From Microcystis aeruginosa NIES-843 (GTDB taxonomy: Bacteria; Cyanobacteriota; Cyanobacteriia; Cyanobacteriales; Microcystaceae), in contig NC_010296.1 of the NCBI RefSeq assembly GCF_000010625.1, positions 1,890,001 through 1,922,000 on the forward strand: a DNA stretch of 32,000 nt, read 5' to 3'. A program made the translations under genes and the position numbers. Positions 12,053 through 32,000 of the stretch are shown here, in pieces. Below the pieces are notes generated by a model. It saw only the letters and a program-made list of their open reading frames with translations. It made no database searches and was not told the origin of the DNA. Position 1 is the first letter of the stretch; every line of letters starts with the position of its first letter.

Positions 12053-12113
12053 CTGCCCAAAAATTACTTGCCAAAAATTGGCCTTTCATGTTAGACTAAA
12101 ATAATGTCATCTT

Positions 12114-12205
12114 GGAGAGGTGGCAGAGTGGTCGAATGCGGCAGATTGCTAATCTGTTGTACGAATCGTAAGACCGTACCGAGGGTTCGAATCCCTCCCT
12201 CTCCG
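12114..12205 (+). tRNA. tRNA-Ser (anticodon GCU)
   Basis: Acceptor stem GGAGAGG/CCTCTCC. Anticodon stem GCAGA/TCTGT with loop TTGCTAA. Long class II variable arm. T-arm GAGGG-TTCGAAT-CCCTC. No encoded CCA. Track ORF 12104..12337 is an artefact. Confidence 0.85.
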
Positions 12206-12224
12206 TATTTTTTGGGTAGGTTCG

Positions 12225-13031
12225 ATGACTGCTCCCCAGGATTATTTCTGCTCCGTATATGGCCCGGTTGCCTCTTGGCGTTTCGGCAGTTCCCTGGGCA
12301 TCGATCCGATCGGTTTAGTTTCCACCTGTTCCTTTAACTGTGCCTACTGTCAGTTAGGAGAAATTGAGCAAAAAACCGAGCAGCGAAGAATTTTTATCAC
12401 CAGTGAACAAATTAGCAGGGATTTAAGCGCTTTTGCTCCTTGGGACGTGGATATAGTCACTCTCAGTGGTAGCGGGGAACCCACCCTCGCCCTCAATTTA
12501 GGGGAAATACTGGCCACCGTCAAGGAAATAACCAGGCGGCCGGTGGCGGTCTTAACCAATAGTACCCTCTTGGGAGATGACCGAGTGCGTCAAGACTTGA
12601 GCAAAGCTGATATCGTCGCCGCTAAAATCGATGCTGTTTCCGAGGCCCAATGGCGACGGGTTAACCGTCCGGTCTCCGGTCTGGATTGGCAGGAGCTTTG
12701 GTGGGGATTAAGACAATTTCGCCAAGAATGGTCGGGAAAACTAGCAATTCAAACCATGCTACTGGCCTCTTGGTCGCCCCAAGATCAAGACCGATACATC
12801 GATTTGATGCAACAGCTACAACCGGATGAAATTCAACTTAACACCCCGACCCGTCCCCGGGCCAGACAAAGACAATTAGAAACCCGCGGTAATAATCCCC
12901 TCACCGCTGCCGACGGAATGCAAATTCTCAAACCCGTAAACGCTGAAATATTGGCAATTTGGGCGCAAAAAATCGCCACGGCCACGGGAATTACCGTGCG
13001 CTGTGTGCCACTTACCGCCACAAGTCTCTAA
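12225..13031 (+). CDS. Radical SAM domain protein
   Basis: 268 aa with the CxxxCxxC cluster motif CSFNCAYCQ near the N-terminus. It starts 19 nt after the tRNA. Confidence 0.75.
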   Translation: MTAPQDYFCSVYGPVASWRFGSSLGIDPIGLVSTCSFNCAYCQLGEIEQKTEQRRIFITSEQISRDLSAFAPWDVDIVTLSGSGEPTLALNLGEILATVKEITRRPVAVLTNSTLLGDDRVRQDLSKADIVAAKIDAVSEAQWRRVNRPVSGLDWQELWWGLRQFRQEWSGKLAIQTMLLASWSPQDQDRYIDLMQQLQPDEIQLNTPTRPRARQRQLETRGNNPLTAADGMQILKPVNAEILAIWAQKIATATGITVRCVPLTATSL

Positions 13032-14902
13032 GGCTTCGGCCGGGGTTTTTCTTCTTTCGGCTTGACATTAAAATAAGCCTCCATTACCTGACGTACCATA
13101 GGTGCGGCCACTTTACCACCACCACCGCCAGAATGTTCCGCAAAGGCGACCACGACAATTTCGGGCTTGTCGAAGGGTGCGAAAGCTCCAAACCAAGCGT
13201 GGGACTTTCCGGGAGGTGCTTCTGCCGTGCCGCTTTTGCCCGCTACAGGCGGTAAAGCGGGGTCCGATAGGGCCCGCCCCGTTCCTTCCGCTACCACGGC
13301 TCTCAGGGACTTTCTCAGGGTGTCTAGGGTGCTAGGTTTCATGTTCAAAGATTTTCGCCATTCCTTAACATCGCGGGCATCCTGTAAAAGGTGCGGTTTC
13401 ACCAAAAAACCACCGTTAGCGGGGACAGCAAACATCACAGCTACCTGTAGGGGAGTCGCTAGGGTAAATCCTTGACCGATCGACATATTAATCGTATCCC
13501 CTACAGACCAATCCCAGTTTTTAAAATTACGCAGTTTCCAATCGCGATCGGCAATTAACCCCGGAGTTTCTTCCGCTAATTCTATCCCGGTTTTCTGACC
13601 GAAACCGTAGCGCCGAGCCGTGGCAATTAAAGTCGGTCCCCCCACCCCGCGACCAATTTGACCGTGAAAAGTGTTACTACTCATGGCCATAGCCCGGACA
13701 AAACCGATCGGACCAAAACCGGCGTGATTCCATTCTCCAAAAGCTGTCCCCCCCACATAAAGGGCGGCAAAGGTATTTAAGACCGTATTTGGCGGAAATT
13801 TCCCCGATTCCATGCCAGCAGTGGCAGTGACGACTTTAAAGGTGGAAGCGGGGGGGAATCCTTGGAGAGCGCGGTTAACAAACGGGTTGCCCTCCGCTTG
13901 CAGTTTTTTCCAAGTGGCGGTGGTAATTGGGGCCGAGAAAACATTGGGATCAAAACTAGGATAACTGACCATGGCCCGCACGGAACCATCCCGGGGATCG
14001 ATTGCCACGATCGCACCTTTGCGTTTTCCTAAAGCGGCCTCGGCGGCTTTTTGGAGTTTTAAATCTAGTGTCAGGGTGACATCTTGCCCCGGTTTAGCAA
14101 TTTTTTGGCCGAGAATTTGGATTACTTGTCCCGATCCGTTGACCTCTAACTGCATTCCTCCCCATTCTCCCCGCAATTTTGACTCGTAGGCGGCTTCCAC
14201 ACCCATTTTACCGACGACATCTCCCAACCGGTAGCCCTGGGGTCTTTTGGCTTTATATTCCTCCGGGGTTAGTTCCCCCGTATAACCGAGAATATGCGCC
14301 CCAATTTTACCATTGGGGTAGTAGCGCACTGATTCCACGTCCACTTCAATGCCGGTTAATTCGTCTTTGTATTCCTCTAGGGCGATAATTTGGCCTGGAG
14401 TTAAACCCCTAGCGATGCGGATCAGGGTGGAGGGGTTTTCGTCCGCTTCGTTAATGCGTTTTTCTAGGTCGCTTCTGGGAATGCCTAAAATACTGGCTAA
14501 ACGGTCAAGATTGAGTTTTTGGGCGGGATTACGCTGGGATTTGGGCCAAATATAGGCCGCATGGGTTAAGCGGGCCGTAGCCAAAACTTTGCCATTGCGA
14601 TCGAATAAGTTGCCCCGGACTGGGGGTTTGGGAATAATGCGAATCCGGTTATTTTCTGCCCTTTCTCGGTTAATTTGTCCTTGCTGCAGTTGTAAATATG
14701 CCAATCGTGAGCCGACTCCTCCTAGCAGGACAATGCTAATTAATCCCATAATTAGCCATGACTGACGCTGACGACCGACTAGACGCTCCTTATCTTTGAT
14801 TTTATTCTGTAATTTATTCGGCGCTGGCCGCGTCGGCGAGGTGAGCGGTTTTTTCGGTTTCAGTTTGACTTTGGTTTTTGATAGGAGTCCGCTATTACGC
14901 AT
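13028..14902 (-). CDS. mrdA: Penicillin-binding protein 2 (class B transpeptidase)
   Basis: 624 aa. N-terminal TM anchor, then the transpeptidase motifs STFK, SSN and KSGTA in the canonical order. Confidence 0.9.
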   Translation of the reverse strand: MRNSGLLSKTKVKLKPKKPLTSPTRPAPNKLQNKIKDKERLVGRQRQSWLIMGLISIVLLGGVGSRLAYLQLQQGQINRERAENNRIRIIPKPPVRGNLFDRNGKVLATARLTHAAYIWPKSQRNPAQKLNLDRLASILGIPRSDLEKRINEADENPSTLIRIARGLTPGQIIALEEYKDELTGIEVDVESVRYYPNGKIGAHILGYTGELTPEEYKAKRPQGYRLGDVVGKMGVEAAYESKLRGEWGGMQLEVNGSGQVIQILGQKIAKPGQDVTLTLDLKLQKAAEAALGKRKGAIVAIDPRDGSVRAMVSYPSFDPNVFSAPITTATWKKLQAEGNPFVNRALQGFPPASTFKVVTATAGMESGKFPPNTVLNTFAALYVGGTAFGEWNHAGFGPIGFVRAMAMSSNTFHGQIGRGVGGPTLIATARRYGFGQKTGIELAEETPGLIADRDWKLRNFKNWDWSVGDTINMSIGQGFTLATPLQVAVMFAVPANGGFLVKPHLLQDARDVKEWRKSLNMKPSTLDTLRKSLRAVVAEGTGRALSDPALPPVAGKSGTAEAPPGKSHAWFGAFAPFDKPEIVVVAFAEHSGGGGGKVAAPMVRQVMEAYFNVKPKEEKPRPKP

Positions 14903-14936
14903 TTGCTTAAAGTTAAAAATTTAAAAGTTATTAGGG

Positions 14937-14983
14937 CAGTTATCAGTTATCAGTCATCAGTTATCAGTTATCAGATTTGAGTT
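14937..14983. repeat. Heptamer tandem repeat (CAGTTAT)n followed by CAGATTTGAGTT
   Basis: CAGTTAT CAGTTAT CAGTCAT CAGTTAT CAGTTAT CAG ATTTGAGTT, read directly. The same module occurs inverted at 25855..25911, and a variant occurs at 29552..29620. Confidence 0.9.
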
Positions 14984-15295
14984 CTAAGTGAGTAGTATGT
15001 ATTAAGTGAGCAGTATTAAATAGTAGTTTGCCACTGTCTTTTCACTGTTTACTGCTTACTGAAAAGGACGCAATACTAGGTGATTTAGCTCCTCTGTTTA
15101 CTAAAGTTCAGGGTATCCGCAATATATCTTAACAAAATCGGAGTAAATACTGGGAGTGGAAGGAACCACTCCAGACACAGAGGACACAAAGATTGATCGC
15201 TTCTATAGTAAGTTAAAGAGAGCCTGGAAACTGGCGCAGACATATAGTTAAGAGTTTGTCAAGTGTTTCTTAACTATATCTAACATTATCCCTGT

Positions 15296-16480
<1,185 letters not shown>

Positions 16481-16488
16481 TTATCTCT

Positions 16489-19400
16489 ATGCCAGTCCTC
16501 ACCATCCGCGAAGAAGGAATTAACGATGGTGGCTTTACTGCTACTCTCAATTTTGATAGCGGTAACAGCTACCCAATTACGGTTACTGACCCCTTTACTA
16601 ACCAAGAAGAAAAACAACTAGAATGGTACTTTGAGGAATGGTTAGTATTTCCGACGCTAGACACGGATAAGGCGCAAAAAGCCGCCAACAGCGTCCAAAA
16701 CTATGGCGAAAACCTATTTAAACAGGTTTTCCAGAGTAATTTAAATGCTTATGGGGAATATCGAGACTTGCGAAAGCAGTTAAGTCAACTGCAAATTATC
16801 ATCGAAAGTCAGTCGCCAGAATTTCAAGCTTTACATTGGGAAGCGCTGAAAGATCCTGATTTACCGCGTCCTTTTTCTATAGATTGTATCATCTCCCGCC
16901 AGCGTCGAGGGGCTACAGTTGTCCCGGTGCAAATGGCCACTTATCCTACTATCAATCTTCTGGTGGTGATTGCGCGTCCTAATGAGGAATCTGATGTTAA
17001 CTATCGCACGATTTCCCGTCCTTTGGTAGAACTGGTAAATAGTAGTGAAATACCGGTAAAAATTGATATATTGCGTCCCGGAACTTATGAATCACTAACC
17101 AGACATCTGGATGAGAAGGGAGAAGGATACTATCATGTTATTCATTTCGATGTTCATGGCGGATTAATGGAATATGAACAGTACCAAAGACAGGTTCACG
17201 GGGATTCTTGGCGCTATCAAAGGGGATGGGGACTGGAGGATTTAGCAGAATATGAGGGAGTAAAAGCTTTTCTGTTTCTGGAAGGAGAAGAAAAAGGTCA
17301 AGCGACTCCGGTAGAAGCGACGGAATTAGCGAATTTACTCACTGGGAAAAATATCCCTATTTGTATTCTCAATGCTTGTCAGTCAGCAAAGCAAATTTCC
17401 CAGGAATCAGAAGACTATCGGGAAACCAGTTTAGGGAGTCGTTTGATGACTGCGGGAATGCAAGCTGTGGTGGCGATGGGATATTCGGTGACGGTTTCTG
17501 CAGCTAAGTTGATGATGAAACCAATTTATCAGCAATTATTGAACGGAAAAGACCTAACGGAAGCGATGCGAAAGGGACGGTTAGAGTTATTCAATAATAA
17601 GCAACGCCGCGCCTATTATAACACGAGAATAGATTTAGAAGATTGGTTATTACCGGTGATTTATTGTCGCGGTAAAATTAATCTCAATTTGCGTCCATTT
17701 ACTCCAGAAGAGGAGGAAAAATACTGGGAACATATCGGCAATCAATATGTCTTTCCTTTACCAGAATACGGCTTTGTGGGAAGGGATTTAGAAATTCTCA
17801 AGATGGAAAAGGCGCTGCTGAAACATAATATCCTTTTACTCAAAGGAATGGGAGGGACAGGAAAAACTACTTTACTCAATTATCTACGAGAATGGTGGCA
17901 GAAAACCAACTGGGCGACCCATATTTTCTATTTTGGTTATGATAGAAAAGCTTGGACGTTAGAACAGATTGTCCATGAAATTGGTCAGGGAATTTATAAT
18001 CGCTTTGAACAGGCGAGTTTCCAAGCGATGAACCTGAAAGCGCGGGTAAAGAAACTAGAGCAAAAACTCCGCAGTGAGGCGTATATTCTCATTTTAGATA
18101 ATCTGGAGTCGGTGACGGGACAACCGTTAGCAATTCAGAATACTTTACCGGAGAATGAAAGGGAAGCAATCGCCGAATTTCTCAAGAATTTGGTCGGGGG
18201 AAAAACGAAGGTGATTTTGGGTTCTCGCAGTGAGGAAACTTGGCTGCAACGCAGGACTTTTAAGGAGAATATCTATCAGTTACAAGGATTAGACCAAGAG
18301 TCGAGAACTGAATTAGCGGAGAGAATCTTAGAACGTCAGGCGAAGAGTCGGAAAAATGCGATTAAAAAGGATGATTATTTTAAACGTTTGATGAAGTTGT
18401 TGGCGGGATATCCGTTGGCGATGGAAGTGGTATTAGCGAATCTGAAGCGACAGTCACCGGAGGAGATTTGGCAAGGGTTACAGTTGGCGGAATTAGCTGA
18501 TGTGGGGGATGAGGATAAGACTAATAATATCATCAAGTGTGTGGAATATTCCCACAGTAATTTGTCGGAGGAGGCGCAGAAGTTGTTACTCTGTTTAGCA
18601 CCTTTTAGTGGGTTTATTCACAGGGGTGTTATTCCTATTTATAGCCAAAAACTACAGCAATTAGAACCTTTACAAGGCTATCAGTTTGATCAATTTGATG
18701 CAGCGATAGAAGAAGCGATTCATTGGGGTTTGCTTTCGCCGATGAGTGAAGAATTGCCGTATTTATTGACTATCCAGCCCATTTTTCCCTACTTCCTGAA
18801 GACGAAGTTAAAGGAATTAGCACCAGAGACACAAGCAGCAATTTGGGAGGGTTTTAAGAATCATTACCGAGACTTGGCAGGTTATTATGATACCTTACTA
18901 GATTCCAAAAATCCGCAGGAGAAGCAGTTAGGGATATTGTTCTGTCGCTGGGAGTATGAAAATCTGTTTAATGCGTTGCAAATCGCCCTCAATCAGCAAG
19001 AGAGCGTATTGACTATTATTAATTGCTTGCATAGTTATCTGGATTTAAACCAAGATACTCAGACTAATTTAAAGCTCCTAGAGTTCGTTCTCGAAACTTT
19101 TGAAAACTATCCCCCTGAAGCCAAACAAGGGCAGGTGGCAATAGAAATCATTGGTATAATTGACGAGGCAGGAAACAAATATTTACAAAGTAAAAATTAT
19201 CAGAAAGCGAAAGAGATTTACCAAAAAAGCCTTGAATTACTCAAGCCAATTAGTGAAAGTTACAGTCAATCTAAGCAATCTTTCCAAGCCATCACCCTGC
19301 ACAATTTGGGAATCGTAGCGCAAGAATTGAGGGAATGGGAACAGGCGCGACTCTACTTCCAGCAGGCTATTGAGATCTACATTGAATATGGGGATCGCTT

Positions 19401-20133
19401 CTCCCAAGCTACCACCCTGCACCAGTTGGGAACGGTAGCGCAACAATTGAGGGAATGGGAGCAAGCCCGAAGCTACTACCAGCAAGCTATTGGGATCTGC
19501 ATTGAATATGGGGATCGCTACTCCCAAGCCATCACCCTGCACAATTTGGGAGCCGTAGCGGCAGAATTGAGGGAATGGGAGCAAGCCCGAAGCCACTACC
19601 AGCAAGCTATTGGGATCTGCATTGAATATGGGGATCGCTACTCCCAAGCCATCACCCTGCACTGTTTGGGAATGGTAGCGGCAGAATTGAGGGAATGGGA
19701 GCAAGCCCAAAGCTACTACCAGCAAGCTATTGAGATCTACATTGAATATGGGGATCGCTACTCCCAAGCCAGCACCCTGCACCACTTGGGAAACCTAGCG
19801 CAAGCATTGAGGGAATGGGAGCAAGCCCGAAGCTACTACCAGCAAGCTATTGAGATCTACATTGAATATGGGGATCGCTACTCCCAAGCTGGAACCCTGC
19901 ACAATTTGGGAATGGTAGCCAAAGCAGTTGGGGAATTGAGCCAAGCCAAAAGTTATTACCTGCAAGCCTTACAAATTTGGGCAGAATTTAACGATAATTA
20001 CACCATACAAACCTATTCTTTGCCTCGTCTTGTTGCTCTTTATCAGCAAACGCAAGATGAGGAGATTCTTGTCGGTATTGCTTCTGTTTTCGGGGTTGGG
20101 GTTGAGGAGGTGCGGGGTTTGCTGGAGGGTTAG
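16489..20133 (+). CDS. CHAT (caspase-like protease) - STAND/NB-ARC-type P-loop NTPase - TPR repeat protein (bacterial NLR-like)
   Basis: 1214 aa. Caspase-fold dyad candidates are His223 (VIHFDVHGG) and Cys297 (ILNACQSA). Walker A GMGGTGKTT (Lys459), Walker B-like ILILDNLE. The C-terminus has six 40-aa TPR-like repeats. Confidence 0.85.
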   Translation: MPVLTIREEGINDGGFTATLNFDSGNSYPITVTDPFTNQEEKQLEWYFEEWLVFPTLDTDKAQKAANSVQNYGENLFKQVFQSNLNAYGEYRDLRKQLSQLQIIIESQSPEFQALHWEALKDPDLPRPFSIDCIISRQRRGATVVPVQMATYPTINLLVVIARPNEESDVNYRTISRPLVELVNSSEIPVKIDILRPGTYESLTRHLDEKGEGYYHVIHFDVHGGLMEYEQYQRQVHGDSWRYQRGWGLEDLAEYEGVKAFLFLEGEEKGQATPVEATELANLLTGKNIPICILNACQSAKQISQESEDYRETSLGSRLMTAGMQAVVAMGYSVTVSAAKLMMKPIYQQLLNGKDLTEAMRKGRLELFNNKQRRAYYNTRIDLEDWLLPVIYCRGKINLNLRPFTPEEEEKYWEHIGNQYVFPLPEYGFVGRDLEILKMEKALLKHNILLLKGMGGTGKTTLLNYLREWWQKTNWATHIFYFGYDRKAWTLEQIVHEIGQGIYNRFEQASFQAMNLKARVKKLEQKLRSEAYILILDNLESVTGQPLAIQNTLPENEREAIAEFLKNLVGGKTKVILGSRSEETWLQRRTFKENIYQLQGLDQESRTELAERILERQAKSRKNAIKKDDYFKRLMKLLAGYPLAMEVVLANLKRQSPEEIWQGLQLAELADVGDEDKTNNIIKCVEYSHSNLSEEAQKLLLCLAPFSGFIHRGVIPIYSQKLQQLEPLQGYQFDQFDAAIEEAIHWGLLSPMSEELPYLLTIQPIFPYFLKTKLKELAPETQAAIWEGFKNHYRDLAGYYDTLLDSKNPQEKQLGILFCRWEYENLFNALQIALNQQESVLTIINCLHSYLDLNQDTQTNLKLLEFVLETFENYPPEAKQGQVAIEIIGIIDEAGNKYLQSKNYQKAKEIYQKSLELLKPISESYSQSKQSFQAITLHNLGIVAQELREWEQARLYFQQAIEIYIEYGDRFSQATTLHQLGTVAQQLREWEQARSYYQQAIGICIEYGDRYSQAITLHNLGAVAAELREWEQARSHYQQAIGICIEYGDRYSQAITLHCLGMVAAELREWEQAQSYYQQAIEIYIEYGDRYSQASTLHHLGNLAQALREWEQARSYYQQAIEIYIEYGDRYSQAGTLHNLGMVAKAVGELSQAKSYYLQALQIWAEFNDNYTIQTYSLPRLVALYQQTQDEEILVGIASVFGVGVEEVRGLLEG
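19285..20004 (+). repeat. Intragenic 120-bp tandem repeats (5 near-identical units plus 1 diverged) encoding the TPR array
   Basis: The period of 120 nt was verified from CAAGCC at 19285 and CAAGCT at 19405. The unit is QAxTLHxLGxVAxxLREWEQARSYYQQAIEIYIEYGDRYS. The antisense track ORF 19237..19785 is a by-product. Confidence 0.9.
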
Positions 20134-21177: not shown

Positions 21178-21645
21178 CTAAATATAGATATAACCCAAGC
21201 CAAAGACACGAAGCAAATCTCGGCATCCTTCTTCAAAATTATCATTAAAATTAATAATTTGGAAGCTAGGTAAGACCCAAGAAAGTTTTGTATATTCACA
21301 AGGTTGATAGAGAATTGGCAAAATTTTATCTTCAAAACGCTGATCCTGTAAAGTAAAAATTAGTTCTCGCTTTACCCACATAGAATCGACCGCATCAGGA
21401 GAGAGAACGATAATAAACCAATCACATCGCCTCAAAGCTTTCCCAATTTCATCATGCCATTGCTGTGCGCCTAAAATATTAGTTTCACTATACCAAACGG
21501 GAACTCCATGACGGCGTAATTCATTGGCCAAATGAGAGACAAACTCTCGATTTTTGCTAGAATGGGAAAGAAAAGCTTCTTGGGGAATCATCTCATACCT
21601 ATAGTTAAAATTAGACAAAGCATAGCTTGGGATGAGACAAGCCAA
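21178..21645 (-). CDS. TIR domain protein (TIR-B)
   Basis: 155 aa. TIR start AFLSHSS, then ...VPVWYSE...WFIIVLSPDAVDSMWVKRELIF with a conserved Glu candidate. An alternative start at the internal Met (ATG 21589-21591) is likely. The upstream TIR gene ends 2 nt before this ORF. Confidence 0.75.
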   Translation of the reverse strand: MACLIPSYALSNFNYRYEMIPQEAFLSHSSKNREFVSHLANELRRHGVPVWYSETNILGAQQWHDEIGKALRRCDWFIIVLSPDAVDSMWVKRELIFTLQDQRFEDKILPILYQPCEYTKLSWVLPSFQIINFNDNFEEGCRDLLRVFGLGYIYI

Positions 21646-21647
21646 AT

Positions 21648-22091
21648 CTAAAAGTGGTGTATCTCATGAGTCAGTCCGTCGGAGCTTGTCGTATTTTTAA
21701 GTGCCTGTGTAATTTCTTTCAATTCTTGATTGTCTTGTTCAAGATTAGGGACGAAAATCATTGGAAATTTTTTGAGAATCCAAGGAATATGTTCTAGGTT
21801 TGAATTATCTGAGGAAGAGACAATAACAGGAATGATACGACCTTGATACTTTTCTTCTCCAATTGCATAACTAATATCAGAAACAACATTAAAAGGCTTC
21901 AGTGATTCTGGTGTTAATAAGACTATCATTGCTTCAGATTCTTGTAAGGCTTTACCTATGTTATTAGCCCAGTTTTCCCCGGGTAACATTTCAGCAGCAT
22001 CCCAAACTTGAAAGCCATCTTCTTTGAGAGAATCAGCAACTCTCTTAGCTAACTTAGCCTCAGTAAAGGCATGACTAATAAAAACTTTCAT
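21648..22091 (-). CDS. TIR domain protein (TIR-A)
   Basis: 147 aa. MKVFISHAF...GFQVWDAAEMLPGENW...AMIVLLTPESL follows the TIR_2-like pattern. No obvious W-x-x-x-E motif is present (the sequence is NVVSDISYAIGE instead). Confidence 0.7.
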   Translation of the reverse strand: MKVFISHAFTEAKLAKRVADSLKEDGFQVWDAAEMLPGENWANNIGKALQESEAMIVLLTPESLKPFNVVSDISYAIGEEKYQGRIIPVIVSSSDNSNLEHIPWILKKFPMIFVPNLEQDNQELKEITQALKNTTSSDGLTHEIHHF

Positions 22092-22196: not shown

Positions 22197-22505
22197 TTAC
22201 TCCTCGACTTCATCAGGAATAGATTCAGCTAACTTAAGCATAGCGCCTAAATCGACTGTTTCTTCAGCGAAATTTCCTGTGCGGGCTTCTGCGAGTCCCC
22301 GTTTGAGCGACTCGCGGACCCTAGGATTCTGAAAAGCCCATAGTTCTCCCCCCAGAATCGCCACCATGGGAACCAAAAGAAGCTCCCCGCTTGCATTCAT
22401 CAGTATTCGATAGTGACGGTTGCTACATTCAGTCCCAAGGCTAATCCGTCCGCAAGCATCAGCCTGAATATCTTCTTTAATGAGCGAAAAATTCTGATAC
22501 TCCAT
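22197..22505 (-). CDS. AbrB/MazE/SpoVT-like small protein (antitoxin-like)
   Basis: The swapped-hairpin-like core DACGRISLGTECSNRHYRILMNASGELLLVPM and the tail ELWAFQNPRVRESLKRGLAEARTG resemble cyanobacterial AbrB-type antitoxins. I prefer the second ATG (22503-22505) because GAGGAGGAG lies 5-8 nt upstream. The track ORF extends to 22526. Confidence 0.5.
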   Translation of the reverse strand: MEYQNFSLIKEDIQADACGRISLGTECSNRHYRILMNASGELLLVPMVAILGGELWAFQNPRVRESLKRGLAEARTGNFAEETVDLGAMLKLAESIPDEVEE

Positions 22506-22661
22506 CACGTCTCCTCCTCTCTTCATATACTTATTCTAGATAAGTTACCCAATTTGGGCAATAGGGTTATGTCCATTTAGCTCCTCACTATCTAAAGAAA
22601 ACAGGTTAAACTTGTTCGGGCGAGAGCCTTGACAACAAACCCAGTTTGTAGTCGAAGCTCT

Positions 22662-22826: not shown

Positions 22827-23177
22827 ATGCAACTCGAAGACTATTTTAATTTTCTTGCCCCTAACGATATCCGACTAAAAGAAACCCGCATCGGTATTGA
22901 AACCATTTTATACGATTTTATTTACCAAGCGAGAACTCCCGAAGAAATTGCCAATACTTATCCGTCTTTAACCCTAGAACAGGTATATGCGACGATTCTT
23001 TATTATCTTCATGAAAAAGAAAAAGTGAGTCAATACATCACCGACTGGCTAGAATGGGGGCGAAAAATGCGAGAAGAACAGCAAAAAAATCCTCCGCCTT
23101 CGGTTGAACGACTGAGAAAATTGAAAGCTGAAATAACAGCCAAGCAGAAAGCTAATGACACTGAAATATTTAATTGA
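22827..23177 (+). CDS. DUF433-like protein (putative antitoxin)
   Basis: 116 aa. TRIGIETILYDF...TPEEIANTYPSLTLEQVYATILYY is the DUF433 pattern. It overlaps the next gene by 23 nt. Confidence 0.65.
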   Translation: MQLEDYFNFLAPNDIRLKETRIGIETILYDFIYQARTPEEIANTYPSLTLEQVYATILYYLHEKEKVSQYITDWLEWGRKMREEQQKNPPPSVERLRKLKAEITAKQKANDTEIFN

Positions 23178-23517
23178 TGAAAATGTTAATTCGGTGTATC
23201 CTCAACAATTGCGTCGCCGAGAACCAGAAATCATTGTTCGAGTAGTTGGTGAACCAGATACACCAAAATTAGGTACATTAGATCCAGAAATTTTGATTTG
23301 GTGTGAGGTAATGGGTTTTATTTTAGTGACAAATAATCGTGCCTCTATGCCCGTTCATTTAATAGCTCACTTCAGGCAAAATCGTCATGTTCCTGGAATT
23401 TTTATTCTCAATCAAGATTTAAGTGTTGGTGATAATTTGTTAGAATTAATTGTAATTGCTAAAGGCTCTTTTGACAATGAATATGAAAACCAAATTATTC
23501 ATTTACCGTTAACCTGA
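23155..23517 (+). CDS. DUF5615-like (PIN/Mut7-C-like) protein (putative toxin)
   Basis: 120 aa. YLIDENV...ILVTNN is the pattern typical of DUF5615 partners of DUF433. Confidence 0.6.
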   Translation: MTLKYLIDENVNSVYPQQLRRREPEIIVRVVGEPDTPKLGTLDPEILIWCEVMGFILVTNNRASMPVHLIAHFRQNRHVPGIFILNQDLSVGDNLLELIVIAKGSFDNEYENQIIHLPLT

Positions 23518-23661: not shown

Positions 23662-23753
23662 GATGGGTTTTGGGCGTAGGGATTGTTTGGGCGCAGGGTG
23701 CGTGTTTGCGGCTATCAATTCAGTTAACGTAAGTCTTAATTAAGGTGGTAAAT

Positions 23754-24374
23754 ATGGTTCAATTTTTACAAGCAAAAGAAGTCACTCTTAGAAATTTAAT
23801 TAATCATTTTCAACTACAGTTTATAGAAGATAAGCATTTTTTTGGGGAATGGCAGCAAGACCTAGAAGCAATCTCTGAACAAGAAAAAGAATTGTTAGAT
23901 AAAATCAAAACAGGTTATTTAAACTTATTAAATTATCCTCCCTTTTTAGAAACTTCGGTGAGGATGACGGTTTTAGATCCATTGTTATTTATTGGTAACT
24001 TTTATCTATTTCCCTTTCAGATTAAAGCGGAAGAGTCCGTTGAAATTATTACAGAAGAGCAAGATTTAATAATTAAAGGAAGGTTAGATACTTTAATTCT
24101 AAAAGAACAATTATGGGTAATGATTATTGAATCAAAACGGGTTATTTATTCCGTTGAAGTAGGTTTACCGCAATTATTAGCTTATTTAATGGTCAATCCT
24201 CATCCCAACCGTCCTAATTATGGAATGTTGACCAATGGTTCCGAGTTTTTATTTGTTAAATTATTATGGGACGGTAAACCTTTATACGGAACCTCTCGTT
24301 TATTTGCCATGAGAAATCCGGGGGATTTATATGAGGTTCTCAAAATCCTTAAACATCTCTGTCAACTAATTTGA
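23754..24374 (+). CDS. PD-(D/E)XK nuclease-fold protein (HsdR-N-terminal-like)
   Basis: GRLDTLILKEQLWVMIIESKR gives a D...E-x-K motif. The ATG at 23754 is preceded by AAGGTGG. The track ORF starts at an upstream GTG (23745). Confidence 0.55.
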   Translation: MVQFLQAKEVTLRNLINHFQLQFIEDKHFFGEWQQDLEAISEQEKELLDKIKTGYLNLLNYPPFLETSVRMTVLDPLLFIGNFYLFPFQIKAEESVEIITEEQDLIIKGRLDTLILKEQLWVMIIESKRVIYSVEVGLPQLLAYLMVNPHPNRPNYGMLTNGSEFLFVKLLWDGKPLYGTSRLFAMRNPGDLYEVLKILKHLCQLI

Positions 24375-29620: not shown

Positions 29621-29650
29621 TTTATCGGTAAAACCCTACACCCCACACCC

Positions 29651-30342
29651 GTTACAGTAGAGCAGGAAGTCGCCTTCCCACCCCCTGCTTCAAAACCGGA
29701 CTTACGACTTTCGCCGTATCCGGCTCCTGAGTAACTAGGCTACTGTCATTAGTAGAATAATAATGGGAATTATTATTTCCTTGTCTATTCAACCCTCTTG
29801 GCTGTATCCCCACCAGACAAGATTGTTGGTTTTAGGGCGTATATGACCGTTGATTGTTGCTTAGACTTCCTAGTTACCCGTCCTTTGTCAGCATATCTTT
29901 GATATTACTCAAAGCCTTGGCTTTTAAGGACATCCTCTCCCTCTATTGACTTGCGGATGGTTTCCTACTGCCCCGAACGGGCAGAGTCAATCAGGGTTAC
30001 TTCGTTCCCTATAACCATTGGTTGAACCCTTAGGATGATACTGTCCACAACAGAGTAACGGGAATGCCTTACTGATAGTGGTATGAGCTATCAGCCCCAA
30101 CTCTGTTAACTTTTGTTTCGAGCCTGTCAGCCTTTTGGCTCGTGGGTGTTGACGATGGTTAATTCGTATCTTCGCCCCAGGGCTATCCATAGGTTCTGGC
30201 TCAACGGGTTTCTGATTTAGGCTATCAGATACCGCTTTTTTTTCCTCGCTCACTACCTCAGATGTACCAAGTCTAAAGCAGCAGGAAATGCCGTCACTCT
30301 AGGCATCTAGAGGACAGGACTAAGGTTATTACTAACCCGCAC
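29651..30342 (-). mobile_element. ORF-less group II intron, copy 1 (692 nt)
   Basis: - The minus strand begins GTGCGGGTTAG (GUGYG) at 30342.
- The canonical 34-nt domain V, GAGCCGGATACGGCGAAAGTCGTAAGTCCGGTTT, is the complement of 29693-29726. It has the AGC triad, a GAAA tetraloop and a 2-nt bulge.
- The domain VI helix has a GCGA loop and a bulged A (complement of 29658) 7 nt from the 3' end ...CTGTAAC.
- Domain IV is reduced to an AT-rich hairpin, and there is no RT ORF. Confidence 0.85.
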
Positions 30343-30456
30343 CTGTAGGGTTATAAAGTTATCAAGGTACTACATTTACCAAGCGGCTAATCCTCTAAAC
30401 GTCTTACTGTCTAGTTTCTAGCCAACGAATCGCACCACACCCCACACCCTACACCC

Positions 30457-31148
30457 GTTACAGTAGAGCAGGAAGTCGCCTTCCCACCCCCTGCTTCAAA
30501 ACCGGACTTACGACTTTCGCCGTATCCGGCTCCTGAGTAACTAGGCTACTGTCATTAGTAGAATAATAATGGGAATTATTATTTCCTTGTCTATTCAACC
30601 CTCTTGGCTGTATCCCCACCAGACAAGATTGTTGGTTTTAGGGCGTATATGACCGTTGATTGTTGCTTAGACTTCCTAGTTACCCGTCCTTTGTCAGCAT
30701 ATCTTTGATATTACTCAAAGCCTTGGCTTTTAAGGACATCCTCTCCCTCTATTGACTTGCGGATGGTTTCCTACTGCCCCGAACGGGCAGAGTCAATCAG
30801 GGTTACTTCGTTCCCTATAACCATTGGTTGAACCCTTAGGATGATACTGTCCACAACAGAGTAACGGGAATGCCTTACTGATAGTGGTATGAGCTATCAG
30901 CCCCAACTCTGTTAACTTTTGTTTCGAGCCTGTCAGCCTTTTGGCTCGTGGGTGTTGACGATGGTTAATTCGTATCTTCGCCCCAGGGCTATCCATAGGT
31001 TCTGGCTCAACGGGTTTCTGATTTAGGCTATCAGATACCGCTTTTTTTTCCTCGCTCACTACCTCAGATGTACCAAGTCTAAAGCAGCAGGAAATGCCGT
31101 CACTCTAGGCATCTAGAGGACAGGACTAAGGTTATTACTAACCCGCAC
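30457..31148 (-). mobile_element. ORF-less group II intron, copy 2
   Basis: Offset of exactly 806 nt from copy 1. Appears identical to copy 1 by eye along the whole length. Confidence 0.85.
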
Positions 31149-31237
31149 CTGTAGGGTTATAAAGTTATCAAGGTACTACATTTACCAAGCGGCTAATCCT
31201 CTAAACGTCTTACTGTCTAGTTTCTAGCCAACGAATC

Positions 31238-31318
31238 GCACCACACCCCACACCCTACACCCCACACCCTACACCCTACACCCCACACCCCACACCCTAC
31301 ACCCCACACCCTACACCC
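31238..31318. repeat. Heptamer tract CACACCC/TACACCC (about 11 units) abutting the intron 3' end
   Basis: The same tract is about 2.5 units at 29634-29650 and about 3 units at 30434-30456. This length difference explains the 862-nt versus 806-nt unit spacing. Confidence 0.9.
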
Positions 31319-32000
31319 GTTACAGTAGAGCAGGAAGTCGCCTTCCCACCCCCTGCTTCAAAACCGGACTTACGACTTTCGCCGTATCCGGCTCCTGAGT
31401 AACTAGGCTACTGTCATTAGTAGAATAATAATGGGAATTATTATTTCCTTGTCTATTCAACCCTCTTGGCTGTATCCCCACCAGACAAGATTGTTGGTTT
31501 TAGGGCGTATATGACCGTTGATTGTTGCTTAGACTTCCTAGTTACCCGTCCTTTGTCAGCATATCTTTGATATTACTCAAAGCCTTGGCTTTTAAGGACA
31601 TCCTCTCCCTCTATTGACTTGCGGATGGTTTCCTACTGCCCCGAACGGGCAGAGTCAATCAGGGTTACTTCGTTCCCTATAACCATTGGTTGAACCCTTA
31701 GGATGATACTGTCCACAACAGAGTAACGGGAATGCCTTACTGATAGTGGTATGAGCTATCAGCCCCAACTCTGTTAACTTTTGTTTCGAGCCTGTCAGCC
31801 TTTTGGCTCGTGGGTGTTGACGATGGTTAATTCGTATCTTCGCCCCAGGGCTATCCATAGGTTCTGGCTCAACGGGTTTCTGATTTAGGCTATCAGATAC
31901 CGCTTTTTTTTTTCCTCGCTCACTACCTCAGATGTACCAAGTCTAAAGCAGCAGGAAATGCCGTCACTCTAGGCATCTAGAGGACAGGACTAAGGTTATT
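31319..32000 (-). mobile_element. ORF-less group II intron, copy 3 (5' ~12 nt cut by the window end)
   Basis: Same sequence. The only difference seen is a T10 run (31874-31883) where copies 1 and 2 have T8. Confidence 0.8.

Follow-up and report, generated by a model that had tools for sequence, protein, structure and literature searches.

The CHAT-NLR locus

The window, a 32,000-nt stretch of the Microcystis aeruginosa NIES-843 chromosome, holds a complete gene at 16489–20133 on the forward strand (ATG start, 1214 aa), which we refer to as CHAT-NLR. It is transcribed divergently from a class III ADH gene (15296–16405, reverse strand), and both promoters presumably lie in the 83 nt between the two genes (16406–16488), where a consensus scan found no sigma-70-like site. 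The gap is 97.6–98.8% identical in five Microcystis genomes; in strain BLCC-F210, 49 nt of it align and the left flank is different. The reading frame, its translation and the coordinates of the gap all bear out what the original prediction, made from the sequence alone, had given for this gene and its divergent neighbour. Further downstream lie two TIR_2 genes (21178–21645 and 21648–22091, reverse strand), a DUF433/weak DUF5615 pair (22827–23517, forward strand) and an HSDR_N/PD-(D/E)xK-like ORF (23745–24374, forward strand).

Domain structure of CHAT-NLR

The original prediction read the protein as a caspase-like effector, an NTPase switch and a TPR sensor, and the elements that it named for each part (a His/Cys dyad, a P-loop with a Walker B-like strand, and TPR repeats) are all present at the residues given below. 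Because profile searches, motif conservation in 31 homologs, and structure prediction followed by a fold search agree, the predicted order CHAT, NB-ARC-type STAND NTPase, TPR (effector, switch, sensor) is supported, as is the description of the protein as bacterial NLR-like with a caspase-fold effector, a layout that resembles the NLR immune receptors of animals and plants. Pfam matches CHAT, NB-ARC, NACHT and TPR_12, all above their curated cut-offs, and the AF2 model of aa 1–880 (pLDDT 82.3, pTM 0.74) matches NLR nucleotide-binding oligomerization domains (NODs) and CHAT proteases in Foldseek.

The first 70 residues (16489–16698, forward strand) form an alpha+beta module in the AF2 model, with three beta-strands followed by helices (pLDDT about 90). 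It has no Pfam match and no family could be assigned, and Glu8, Phe16, Pro35, Phe36, Glu41, Trp46, Tyr47, Glu49 and Trp51 are invariant in the 31 homologs.

The CHAT peptidase domain (caspase fold, clan CD-like; PF12770, 72.7 bits versus a cut-off of 24) spans aa 71–374 (16699–17610, forward strand). Its dyad consists of His223 (codon 17155–17157) in HFDVHGG, aa 219–225, and Cys297 (codon 17377–17379) in ILNACQS, aa 293–299. His219, Asp221, His223, Gly224, Ala296, Cys297, Gln298 and Ser299 are invariant in the 31 homologs, and a loop of low pLDDT, predicted to be disordered, comprises aa 297–312 directly after the catalytic cysteine. The closest solved CHAT structures in Foldseek are Csx29 (TPR-CHAT of the type III-E CRISPR Craspase; 7zoq, 8eex and 7y84) and the anti-sigma factor DdvA (8rw5), and at the sequence level 8rot matches weakly. 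These proteins share the CHAT fold and the His/Cys dyad with CHAT-NLR, but they are switched on by a Cas7-11–RNA complex or by membrane signalling instead of a fused STAND NTPase and carry the TPR ahead of the CHAT domain.

Pfam, motifs and Foldseek place an NB-ARC-type NOD at aa 446–689 (17824–18555, forward strand), with 31.0 bits for NB-ARC (cut-off 23.5) and 28.2 bits for NACHT (cut-off 26.7). Walker A (GMGGTGKTT, aa 453–461 with Lys459; 17845–17871), Walker B (ILILDNLE, aa 533–540; 18085–18108), a sensor-I-like GSR (aa 578–580) and the GxP motif GYPLA (18406–18420) are invariant in the 31 homologs. The top fold matches are plant NLR NB-ARC domains (9h2l, 8xuo, 7dfv and 8bv0; E about 1e-7), MalT (8bob), Apaf-1 (1z6t) and CED-4 (2a5y), and the region has a weak sequence match to an ADR1-type ARC. 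A winged helix and a helical linker that includes degenerate TPR-like helices (AF2) follow at aa 690–932 (18556–19284, forward strand). The MHD-equivalent motif in this segment is IQP (Ile762, Gln763 and Pro764; 18772–18780), in which glutamine replaces histidine in all 31 homologs, and Walker B reads D-N instead of D-D/E. Nucleotide handling may therefore differ from that of the proteins used below as models, which counts against the switch mechanism that we favour.

A hypervariable TPR array

The sensor part consists of six TPR units of 40 aa (120 bp) at aa 933–1172 (19285–20004, forward strand; TPR_12, 219.6 bits in seven stretches) and is followed by a C-terminal tail, aa 1173–1214 plus the stop codon (20005–20133), with a median identity of 83% among Microcystis alleles. 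At the DNA level, TRF reports a tandem array of 120 bp at 19284–19967 with 5.7 copies and 87% matches, a feature absent from the original prediction.

Units 1–5 are near-identical save for a few hypervariable codons, and unit 6 is a divergent cap. Nucleotide identity among units 1–5 is 86–92.5%, and amino-acid identity among the units is 77.5–85% (mean 81%). All nucleotide differences between units 2–5 are nonsynonymous and cluster in codons 3, 7, 10, 13, 14, 30 and 32. Among 305 unique Microcystis units, entropy reaches 2.2–2.8 bits at positions 3, 7, 10, 32 and 40 and is near zero elsewhere. With Gly9, Ala21 and Ala28 of the unit set to canonical TPR Gly8, Ala20 and Ala27, the hypervariable positions correspond to TPR positions 2, 6 and 9 (plus 12 and 13), which are given as concave ligand contacts in PMC1261162. 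By this sequence register, the variation thus falls on the canonical concave ligand-binding positions. In a crude count over paralogous repeats, which is not a phylogenetic test, pN and pS are 0.53 and 0.36 in the hypervariable codons and 0.082 and 0.173 in the remaining ones.

Microcystis alleles carry four to nine units each. Signatures at the hypervariable sites are unique in 256 of 343 units, and some units are common to several alleles at differing ordinal positions. Across about 60 alleles, median protein identity to the window protein falls from 99.1% in CHAT to 90.4% in the NOD and 78% in the array; DNA identity is 98.1–99.3% for CHAT, 98.0–98.4% for the neighbouring ADH gene and 87–90% for the array. 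Polymorphism begins in the helical linker, where entropy rises from about aa 690 to a peak at aa 840–930 (59 alleles). CHAT and NOD are under purifying selection, whereas the TPR units are extremely diversified among alleles. Sensor repeats that differ in almost every strain suggest an arms race.

Genomic context and distribution

The closest homologs of CHAT-NLR (84–95% identical) are all from Microcystis, and the family, annotated as "TPR protein" only, is present in all major cyanobacterial orders, in unicellular and filamentous forms alike. The original prediction had set its reading against orthologs lying uniformly in housekeeping contexts, and the outcome is divided: most Microcystis genomes carry the gene at a fixed site beside ADH and PBP2 and not in a mobile defence island, whereas in other genera it lies in unrelated contexts that are rich in toxin–antitoxin (TA) modules and share no housekeeping neighbour. 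The fixed site counts against the defence role favoured below. So does the recovery of the gene in all eight Microcystis species representatives, since it therefore looks core, and so does the finding that no conserved substrate or partner gene adjoins it in Microcystis. The right flank of the site is a variable islet; the TIR, TA and nuclease-fold genes noted earlier are indeed nearby, but they vary between strains and are not linked to CHAT-NLR.

PADLOC, which the original prediction had named as a check, matches CHAT-NLR with no system-level defence model, neither Avs nor bNACHT, and returns generic TPR matches only. This also counts against a defence role and places the protein outside the characterised Avs and bNACHT families by sequence.

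Relation to known NLR-like proteins

The CHAT-STAND-TPR architecture is already known (Dyrka 2014, 2020; Kaur 2020, 2021; Nature 2026). CHAT-NLR belongs to the all-in-one NLRs, or AP-ATPase-TPR proteins, that begin with a caspase-like domain, either CHAT or a metacaspase (Koonin and Aravind 2002; Leipe 2004; Dyrka 2020; Kaur 2020/2021), a class in which CHAT is a frequent N-terminal domain in multicellular bacteria. It shares with this class the domain order, the NB-ARC-type NOD with a GxP motif, the TPR C-terminus and the enrichment in cyanobacteria and colonial or multicellular organisms. Nothing categorical sets it apart; the surveys contain neither the allelic repeat hypervariability of the CHAT-NLR family nor experimental function. 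New here are the allelic gradient along the protein, the variation in repeat number, the mostly unique unit signatures and the hypervariable concave sites with pN above pS, and also the finding that the TIR genes are not conserved partners and the small helical protein that, outside Microcystis, is often encoded nearby.

Like KrAvs12 (Evans 2025) and the bacterial Apaf-1-like proteins that start with a caspase-like protease and whose nearest relatives are cyanobacterial (PMC13581612), CHAT-NLR combines protease, STAND and repeat sensor in one chain, and the predicted logic is the same: ligand, oligomerization, active cysteine protease. KrAvs12, a caspase-like protease–STAND fusion active in phage defence, responds to a phage protein and depends on its catalytic cysteine for toxicity (10.1101/2025.11.14.688446). 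It works, however, through an adjacent pore-forming substrate, EACC1, and no such gene is found at the CHAT-NLR locus; the Apaf-1-like proteins carry WD40 propellers in place of TPRs. The sensors of characterised Avs proteins are irregular, TPR-like and envelop conserved phage proteins or folds, whereas that of CHAT-NLR is built from near-identical cassettes, a difference that again weighs against a defence role.

Proposed function

Taken together, CHAT-NLR is probably an NLR-like sensor-executioner of Microcystis that acts on its own as a single polypeptide, and its most likely function is that of a ligand-triggered, oligomerizing protease death switch.

As a variant of this reading rather than a strict rival, the protease might not kill by itself but license a distinct latent effector whose gene lies elsewhere in the Microcystis genome, a variant that we consider unlikely even if the main model is right. 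In many other cyanobacteria, this effector would be a neighbouring protein of about 150 aa, helical and with a pair of hydrophobic helices towards its C-terminus. The corresponding small ORF lies 0.03–3.7 kb from the NLR gene, in several orientations, at 42–44 of 72–73 non-Microcystis loci, and it follows a CHAT-NACHT-TPR paralog of only 32% identity at a distance of 2 nt. AF2 models it as helical throughout (pLDDT 84.8; hydrophobic helices at aa 92–108 and 115–135), PADLOC matches it weakly to the candidate defence gene PDC-M35B, and protease-STAND fusions activate the small effectors EACC1 and Pepco encoded beside them (10.1101/2025.11.14.688446). However, the small protein has no homolog in the window or at any Microcystis locus examined, nor are there Microcystis members among the 120 family matches listed. 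Its gene can also lie away from any CHAT gene, for instance in Calothrix PCC 7507; neither Pfam nor a PDB fold matches the protein, and its cleavage by the NLR is putative.

Kin recognition or colony-level PCD is an unlikely alternative, in which the array would sense non-kin Microcystis proteins or a self stress signal instead of phage, policing colony membership or executing bloom-collapse PCD in the manner of fungal het-type genes (HET-E, HET-D and NB-ARC/TPR genes). A fixed locus with very many alleles fits this idea, as do repeat-number polymorphism and hypervariable concave sites, and the parallel to fungal NLRs whose repeats show high internal conservation is close (PMC4986451). Such NLRs (Podospora NB-ARC/TPR Pa_2_10340, HET-E/D; TPR, ANK or WD repeats; Dyrka 2014) likewise have near-identical repeats of polymorphic number with a handful of hypervariable concave positions each, and combine NB-ARC with TPR; CHAT-NLR differs in being prokaryotic, in its 40-aa unit and CHAT effector, and in a mean unit identity just under the fungal criterion of 85%. 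Microcystis forms colonies, and bacteria that are multicellular or aggregate are enriched in NLR-like genes. Yet bacteria do not fuse their cytoplasm, so non-kin proteins have no obvious route to a cytosolic sensor save by way of mobile elements or injected effectors. That the family spans all cyanobacterial orders, unicellular as well as filamentous members included, also argues against this role, and the experimentally characterised bacterial STANDs of this layout that we found in the literature are all anti-phage.

We also think it improbable that CHAT-NLR serves a non-immune role, as a core-genome signalling ATPase comparable to MalT, AfsR or GutR or as a scaffold with a processing protease, responding to an endogenous metabolite or protein while its TPRs change through neutral repeat instability. 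The conserved synteny with ADH and PBP2, the occurrence in every Microcystis species representative recovered, a CHAT conservation equal to that of neighbouring housekeeping genes, MalT among the structural matches and the lack of defence-database matches are consistent with such a role. Neutral slippage, however, would not focus change on five to seven codons per unit and leave neighbouring codons and synonymous sites identical, nor does it sit well with variation that maps onto ligand-contact positions. The protease is moreover the sole output domain that Pfam recognizes, DNA-binding or other, and the TA-rich contexts of other genera speak against a housekeeping function.

A Thoeris type IV-like system, in which a nucleotide signal from the two TIR-only genes 1–2 kb downstream would activate the caspase-like protease, has a precedent (a defence system of TIR and a caspase-like protease; 10.1101/2024.10.24.620036) but is very improbable here. 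The two TIR genes run on the opposite strand beyond a DUF29 gene and are missing from M. panniformis and M. aeruginosa CP116295, both of which have CHAT-NLR; no TIR family is among the recurrent neighbours at 80 loci, and CHAT-NLR itself carries a STAND-TPR sensor, with no nucleotide-signal-binding domain recognizable by Pfam. Lacking co-occurrence across Microcystis and these loci, the TIR genes are largely refuted as partners.

For the favoured sensor-executioner, we infer the ligand, the oligomerization, the substrates of the protease and the death of the cell as follows. At rest, the NB-ARC-type NOD would keep the protein as an inactive monomer. The trigger would be a foreign protein, most likely from a cyanophage or another mobile element, bound by the concave TPR face and probably also by the polymorphic helical region upstream. 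If the protein behaves like Apaf-1, plant resistosomes and the Avs proteins of bacteria, binding would lift autoinhibition, nucleotide-dependent NOD oligomerization would gather the N-terminal CHAT domains, and the His223/Cys297 protease would be switched on by proximity. It may then cut a large number of host proteins, or a latent effector encoded at an unlinked site, so that the infected cell would die or stop growing and its clonal neighbours in the colony would be protected.

Domain architecture and predicted fold

The open reading frame at 16489-20133 (+) is real: it starts with ATG and encodes 1214 aa, and the motifs quoted in the original prediction lie at the residues assigned to them (HFDVHGG with H223, ILNACQS with C297, GMGGTGKTT with K459 and ILILDNLE at 533-540). 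That prediction had proposed a CHAT protease, a STAND NTPase and TPR repeats, in this order. Pfam profiles, conserved motifs and an AlphaFold2 (AF2) fold searched with Foldseek agree, and this agreement supports the tripartite reading. CHAT, NB-ARC and TPR all score above their curated Pfam cut-offs in the protein: CHAT (PF12770) with 72.7 bits against a cut-off of 24 over aa 71-374 (model positions 2-273 of 289), NB-ARC with 31.0 bits against 23.5 over aa 446-689 (model positions 18-246 of 248) and TPR_12 with 219.6 bits in seven stretches. NACHT passes marginally, with 28.2 bits against 26.7, and among the NCBIfam models only TPR-containing families matched the protein, all below threshold.

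The putative protease follows the CHAT dyad order, with the histidine (H-G) first and the cysteine (A-C-x-S/T) second. In an alignment of 31 homologs from across the cyanobacterial orders, residues H219, D221, H223, G224, A296, C297, Q298 and S299 of this domain are invariant. The nucleotide-binding oligomerisation domain (NOD), of the AP-ATPase/NB-ARC clade of STAND NTPases, has a Walker A motif, a Walker B motif (ILILD537), a sensor-I arginine and a GxP (GLPL) motif; Walker A residues G453-T461, Walker B residues L536, D537, N538 and E540, GSR580 and GYPLA are invariant in the same 31 homologs. Walker B departs from the usual form in that its aspartate is followed by asparagine rather than by Asp or Glu (D537-N538-L-E540; 18085-18108), and this departure is itself invariant in the alignment. 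The MHD-type histidine of the winged-helix domain, which contacts ADP, is without a match. The position that we infer to be equivalent, from motif order and from strand 759-761 and helix 765-774 of the AF2 model, reads I762-Q763-P764 (18772-18780), with the glutamine invariant in the 31-homolog alignment.

Sequence searches of the PDB with the whole protein, the CHAT domain and the NOD separately gave significant matches to TPR proteins only and none for CHAT or NOD. Both domains are thus without a close solved relative by sequence, and a fold search was therefore needed. The AF2 model, built from the 31-homolog alignment, covers aa 1-880 (mean pLDDT 82.3, pTM 0.74). It consists of a three-stranded plus helical N-terminal module (aa 1-100), an alpha/beta CHAT core of the caspase/hemoglobinase type in which strands and helices alternate over aa 100-375, and a P-loop domain with helical and winged-helix subdomains that forms the NOD. 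Loop 297-312, directly behind the catalytic cysteine, is disordered in the model. The top 13 Foldseek matches in the PDB are NB-ARC domains of plant NLRs (9h2l, 8xuo, 7dfv, 8bv0; E ~1e-7), followed by MalT, Apaf-1 and CED-4. The N-terminal half matches the TPR-CHAT protease Csx29 (7zoq, E 4.6e-5; 8eex; 7y84) and DdvA (8rw5), with low TM-scores (0.25-0.27) that reflect normalisation to the 880-aa query.

The putative sensor is an array of hypervariable TPR cassettes

The TPR region consists of a tandem array with a 120-bp period, which encodes six 40-aa units at aa 933, 973, 1013, 1053, 1093 and 1133. Units 1-5 are 86-92.5% identical at the DNA level and, over their 200 aa, 77.5-85% identical at the protein level. 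The protein mean of 81% is just below the fungal threshold, by which repeats have to be 85% or more identical in amino acids over a stretch of 100 aa or more (Dyrka 2014, PMC4986451). Units 2-5 have no synonymous differences at all; their changes are confined to codons 3, 7, 10, 13, 14, 30 and 32, and the changed codons often differ by two or three bases. An antisense ORF of 182 aa within the array (19237-19785 (-)) was rejected as an artefact of the repeat periodicity; comparable ORFs were found only in other Microcystis loci.

Across 376 units (305 of them unique) from 67 Microcystis alleles of the protein, entropy reaches 2.2-2.8 bits at unit positions 3, 7, 10, 32 and 40 and ~1.2 bits at positions 13 and 14, and it is near zero at most others. 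Residues G9, A21 and A28, which show little or no variation, are the counterparts of canonical TPR residues G8, A20 and A27; the hypervariable sites therefore fall on TPR positions 2, 6 and 9 (plus 12 and 13), the concave-face ligand-contact sites of Magliery and Regan (PMC1261162). Canonical TPR numbering, rather than a structure, thereby assigns them to the predicted concave binding face. Crude as it is, a simple Nei-Gojobori count based on 40 unique DNA units of ten loci points in the expected direction, with a pN/pS of 1.47 for the five hypervariable codons (pN 0.53, pS 0.36) and 0.48 for the remaining codons (pN 0.082, pS 0.173).

The 57 near-full-length alleles differ in length in 40-aa steps and hold four (n = 2), five (14), six (23), seven (17) or nine (1) units. 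Their 343 units comprise 277 unique sequences and 256 unique hypervariable signatures, and 13 shared units stand at differing ordinal positions between alleles. The six signatures of the window allele are private to it within this set. Fungal diversifying NLRs (Dyrka 2014) have the same traits: a few hypervariable concave-face positions with a nonsynonymous excess, as in the window family, and repeat-number polymorphism with unit shuffling, as in the Microcystis alleles. In the literature searched, we found no description of such cassette hypervariability of a TPR array within one bacterial species.

A diversity-generating retroelement (DGR) was rejected as the source of this variation. The ORFs of the window include neither a reverse transcriptase nor a template repeat, the variable target is a TPR rather than the CLec-type fold of DGR targets (PMC10907252), and the codon differences between units are multi-nucleotide.

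Constraint relaxes along the gene. Median protein identity of the Microcystis alleles to the window protein is 99.1% in CHAT, 90.4% in the NOD (aa 431-880) and 78% in the TPR array, and per-site entropy is flat to ~aa 690, climbs through the winged-helix and linker region and is maximal at aa 840-930 and beyond. At the DNA level, CHAT (98.1-99.3% identity) is about as conserved as the divergently transcribed alcohol dehydrogenase gene ADH (98.0-98.4%) and more conserved than the left-flank housekeeping gene PBP2 (95.8-97.4%), with the TPR array at 87-90%. The CHAT executioner and the NOD switch are thus under purifying selection and the sensor is diversifying, the gradient that is expected of an NLR-type receptor.

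Proposed mechanism

We observe in this gene an NLR-like architecture, intact motifs and the evolutionary pattern just described. The best-supported model, which we hold to be probable, is that the protein acts on its own as an NLR-like death switch. Reasoning from Apaf-1, plant resistosomes and Avs proteins as analogues, the concave TPR face would recognise a foreign protein as its ligand, the NOD would then oligomerise in a nucleotide-dependent manner, the CHAT protease would be switched on by proximity, and proteolysis of its substrates would lead to growth arrest or death.

The fungal-like polymorphism of the array would also fit a receptor for kin recognition or colony PCD. This is the first of the rival explanations in our ranking, yet we think it unlikely, as there is no obvious route by which the protein would be exposed to the proteins of non-kin.

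Genomic context

The NLR-like gene is transcribed divergently from ADH (15296-16405 (-)), a class III alcohol/S-(hydroxymethyl)glutathione dehydrogenase gene (TIGR02818, 628.7 bits), and the spacing of 83 nt that had been predicted is exact between the two start codons. The left flank, with TetR, MFP, FtsX, ABC, radical SAM, PBP2 and ADH genes, is common to closed genomes of M. ichthyoblabe, M. panniformis and M. aeruginosa. All ten metagenomic contigs with an identical ADH protein (L006-L015) likewise carry a long divergent gene 83 nt away. These short-read contigs all end inside the NLR gene (cut products of 525-1002 aa), six of the ten at 949-1002 aa, which is where the 120-bp repeat array begins or just within it. 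The locus is thus probably truncated or mis-assembled systematically in short-read assemblies; these, and allele catalogues from MAGs, need caution. The closed genome of Microcystis sp. BLCC-F210 (locus L020, 1-10000 compared with window 13028-16488) has genes for an ABC-ATPase, an HI0933-like flavoprotein, an alpha/beta-hydrolase and a methyltransferase in place of the ADH/PBP2 left flank. Its alignment to the intergenic region extends over only 49 nt, which places a rearrangement breakpoint inside that region, directly upstream of the NLR gene. A scan for promoter and terminator consensus sequences gave nothing above shuffled expectation.

The synteny and the core-gene distribution would also be compatible with a non-immune role of the protein in core signalling. 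Such a role is at odds with the site-specific diversification of the sensor; we place it second among the rivals and consider it improbable.

Downstream of the NLR-like gene follow a DUF29 gene, two TIR_2 genes on the opposite strand, a 109-aa ORF, a DUF433/DUF5615 pair, an HSDR_N-like PD-(D/E)xK gene, SpoIID and MetH. The TIR_2-only genes (21178-21645 (-) and 21648-22091 (-); 155 and 147 aa) are 2 nt apart and have ThsB-like/TIR matches in PADLOC, and no ThsA-like or other effector lies near the pair. The DUF433 gene and a weak DUF5615 (PIN-like) match (22827-23177 (+) and 23155-23517 (+)) overlap and resemble a toxin-antitoxin module. The 109-aa ORF (22197-22526 (-)) has no family match and turns up in this islet in five Microcystis loci.

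The TIR, toxin-antitoxin-like and nuclease-fold neighbours that had been noted from the sequence are therefore present, but they are strain-variable, and TIR is not a conserved partner. The TIR pair and the toxin-antitoxin-like genes occur in the window and in M. ichthyoblabe, where the TIR pair is in the same place; the right flank of M. panniformis has an IS605-type element and no TIR, and that of M. aeruginosa CP116295 has unrelated genes and no TIR. Because this flank varies between strains, we take the TIR genes to be chance neighbours, and we reject them as functional partners for their lack of co-occurrence with the CHAT-NLR. A TIR-coupled, Thoeris-IV-like system, the last of the ranked rivals, is hence very improbable, the TIR genes being absent from two of these Microcystis genomes and no TIR cluster being found among the recurrent neighbours of 80 loci. 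In Nostoc PCC 7107, the NLR gene has ParE and HepT/MNT toxin-antitoxin modules around it. The NLR-like gene does not reside on any obviously mobile island, but it borders a hot spot of variable, conflict-type genes.

Three further features of the window were recorded. The 3' end of a 23S rRNA (1-533) and a 5S rRNA (590-707) account for the GC spike at the window start (1-707). The ABC-transporter ATPase and radical-SAM genes have a tRNA-Ser(GCT) between them (12113-12206). Downstream of metH, 29631-32000 (-) contains three tandem copies of ~806-862 bp that are 99-100% identical, the last of which runs off the window. Each copy has a match to the Rfam group II intron domain RF00029 (55 bits) and none has an ORF of at least 90 aa; they look like ORF-less group II intron-derived repeats.

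Relatives and defence-system databases

All of the closest homologs, with 84-95% identity over the full length, belong to Microcystis; a second tier, at 55-76%, is made up of proteins from Xenococcaceae, Nostoc, Calothrix, Oscillatoria, Crocosphaera and others. Their source annotations do not go beyond "tetratricopeptide repeat protein" or "CHAT domain-containing protein". When one genome per GTDB species was scanned with aa 1-880 as the query, 272 relatives emerged. The best 80 of these are all cyanobacterial, represent essentially every order and include eight Microcystis species representatives; several genomes among them carry two or three copies.

The original prediction had pointed to defence-system databases, and here PADLOC, searched with the protein and eight neighbours, returned no system-level match for the NLR-like protein; matches to ThsB-like and TIR models came from the TIR ORFs only. 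None of the Avs/AVAST and bNACHT family HMMs in PADLOC-DB v2 matched it; the matches were to generic TPR models, with SAVED_CHAT (16.2 bits) and mad8 (14.8 bits) below threshold. Characterised antiviral STANDs (Avs, bNACHT) share with it the layout of effector, STAND and repeat sensor, and roughly 90 newer Avs families exist (PMC13581612). Comparative genomics has repeatedly pointed out CHAT or metacaspase-NB-ARC-TPR proteins in cyanobacteria, experiments support a caspase-STAND fusion as a cell-death system that is triggered by phage and depends on its Cys (10.1101/2025.11.14.688446), and Apaf-1-like cyanobacterial proteins with caspase-like N-termini were highlighted in 2026 (PMC13581612). 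The window protein thus joins the known CHAT/metacaspase-NB-ARC-TPR class as a new member that is so far uncharacterised.

A small helical partner in other cyanobacteria

Clustering of the flanking ORFs of the 80 loci revealed one recurrent neighbour, an ORF of ~138-155 aa that is present in 42 of 72 non-Microcystis loci by clustering and in 44 of 73 by HMM (with the Nostoc PCC 7107 locus L005 counted). It lies 0.03-3.7 kb from the NLR gene, mostly convergent and sometimes divergent or co-directional. Examples from the extracted loci are L036:13637-14101(-), L044:13747-14202(-), L090:13032-13457(-) and L100:7001-7465(+), and it is found in loci L024-L095 and others. Its consensus is ...LR.ELCG.D.GFR...EY.KNPGS.PLLTGLIVSLVG..LP.DPAIATVIVLYILKIGLNIFC.YTEP. 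and the family has two invariant cysteines. The suspicion that the cluster was an antisense-repeat artefact was overturned on checking; it is a real small gene family, with 448 clusters whose listed members are all "hypothetical" and all cyanobacterial. In Microcoleus FACHB-SPT15, 2 nt separate the start of the small gene from a preceding CHAT-NACHT-TPR paralog, which shares just 32% identity with the window protein, and in Calothrix PCC 7507 it is found alone. We found no description of this recurrent partner of the CHAT-NLR in the literature searched.

The small protein has no Pfam match and a weak match to the PADLOC candidate PDC-M35B (18.5 bits). Its AF2 model is all-helical (pLDDT 84.8), with two hydrophobic C-terminal helices, and has no significant match among PDB folds (best E 0.67); we therefore make no claim of a Bcl-2 or colicin-like fold. 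EACC1 and Pepco are small latent effectors activated by adjacent protease-STAND fusions (10.1101/2025.11.14.688446), and by this analogy the small partner is a plausible candidate for a protease substrate or effector, in its own lineages and not directly in the window. It is uncharacterised and appears to be a different protein from the known protease-latent effectors (EACC1, Pepco, gasdermin, MBL, alpha/beta-hydrolase). By tblastn and HMM, neither the window nor any Microcystis locus examined contains it, and in these loci flank clustering and HMM searches likewise detected no conserved small or latent effector gene beside the protease gene.

In Calothrix PCC 6303, a 568-aa gene (L098:8849-10555 (-)) has TPR units 53% identical to the window array and adjoins a copy of the small partner, with ParE modules between them. 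It has no detectable CHAT or NOD match and may be a truncated form or have a different N-terminus.

Implications

Beyond the death-switch model, we tentatively consider a further joint reading, which is possible but doubtful: the window protein would be a prokaryotic counterpart of fungal-type diversifying NLRs, and the protease of sister lineages would license the ~150-aa protein as a latent membrane effector. At a fixed chromosomal receptor gene, near-identical TPR cassettes would be reshuffled, gained and lost, and nearly every Microcystis strain would have a recognition surface of its own, which drives a caspase-like executioner that does not vary. If this is true, the gene would encode an immune or non-self receptor that evolves rapidly at the level of the population and shapes the dynamics between cyanophage and host, or between strains, in blooms.

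Since the layout of caspase, STAND and repeats is already established, the gain is incremental unless function is demonstrated. The cassette hypervariability within a bacterial species and the recurrent small helical partner are both computational observations, and the latter may represent a new class of protease-activated effector in other cyanobacteria.

Microcystis forms toxic freshwater blooms, which collapse partly via cyanophages and programmed cell death. Almost the whole genus has the NLR-like gene; its locus is fixed and its polymorphism extreme, and it is therefore a concrete candidate gene for the control of cell death or for strain-specific resistance to phage. The evolution of NLR specificity by repeat shuffling has so far been studied mainly in fungi and plants, and this locus would be a tractable bacterial system for it. 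The chief interest of the gene lies in the population-level diversification of its sensor in an ecologically important bloom-former.
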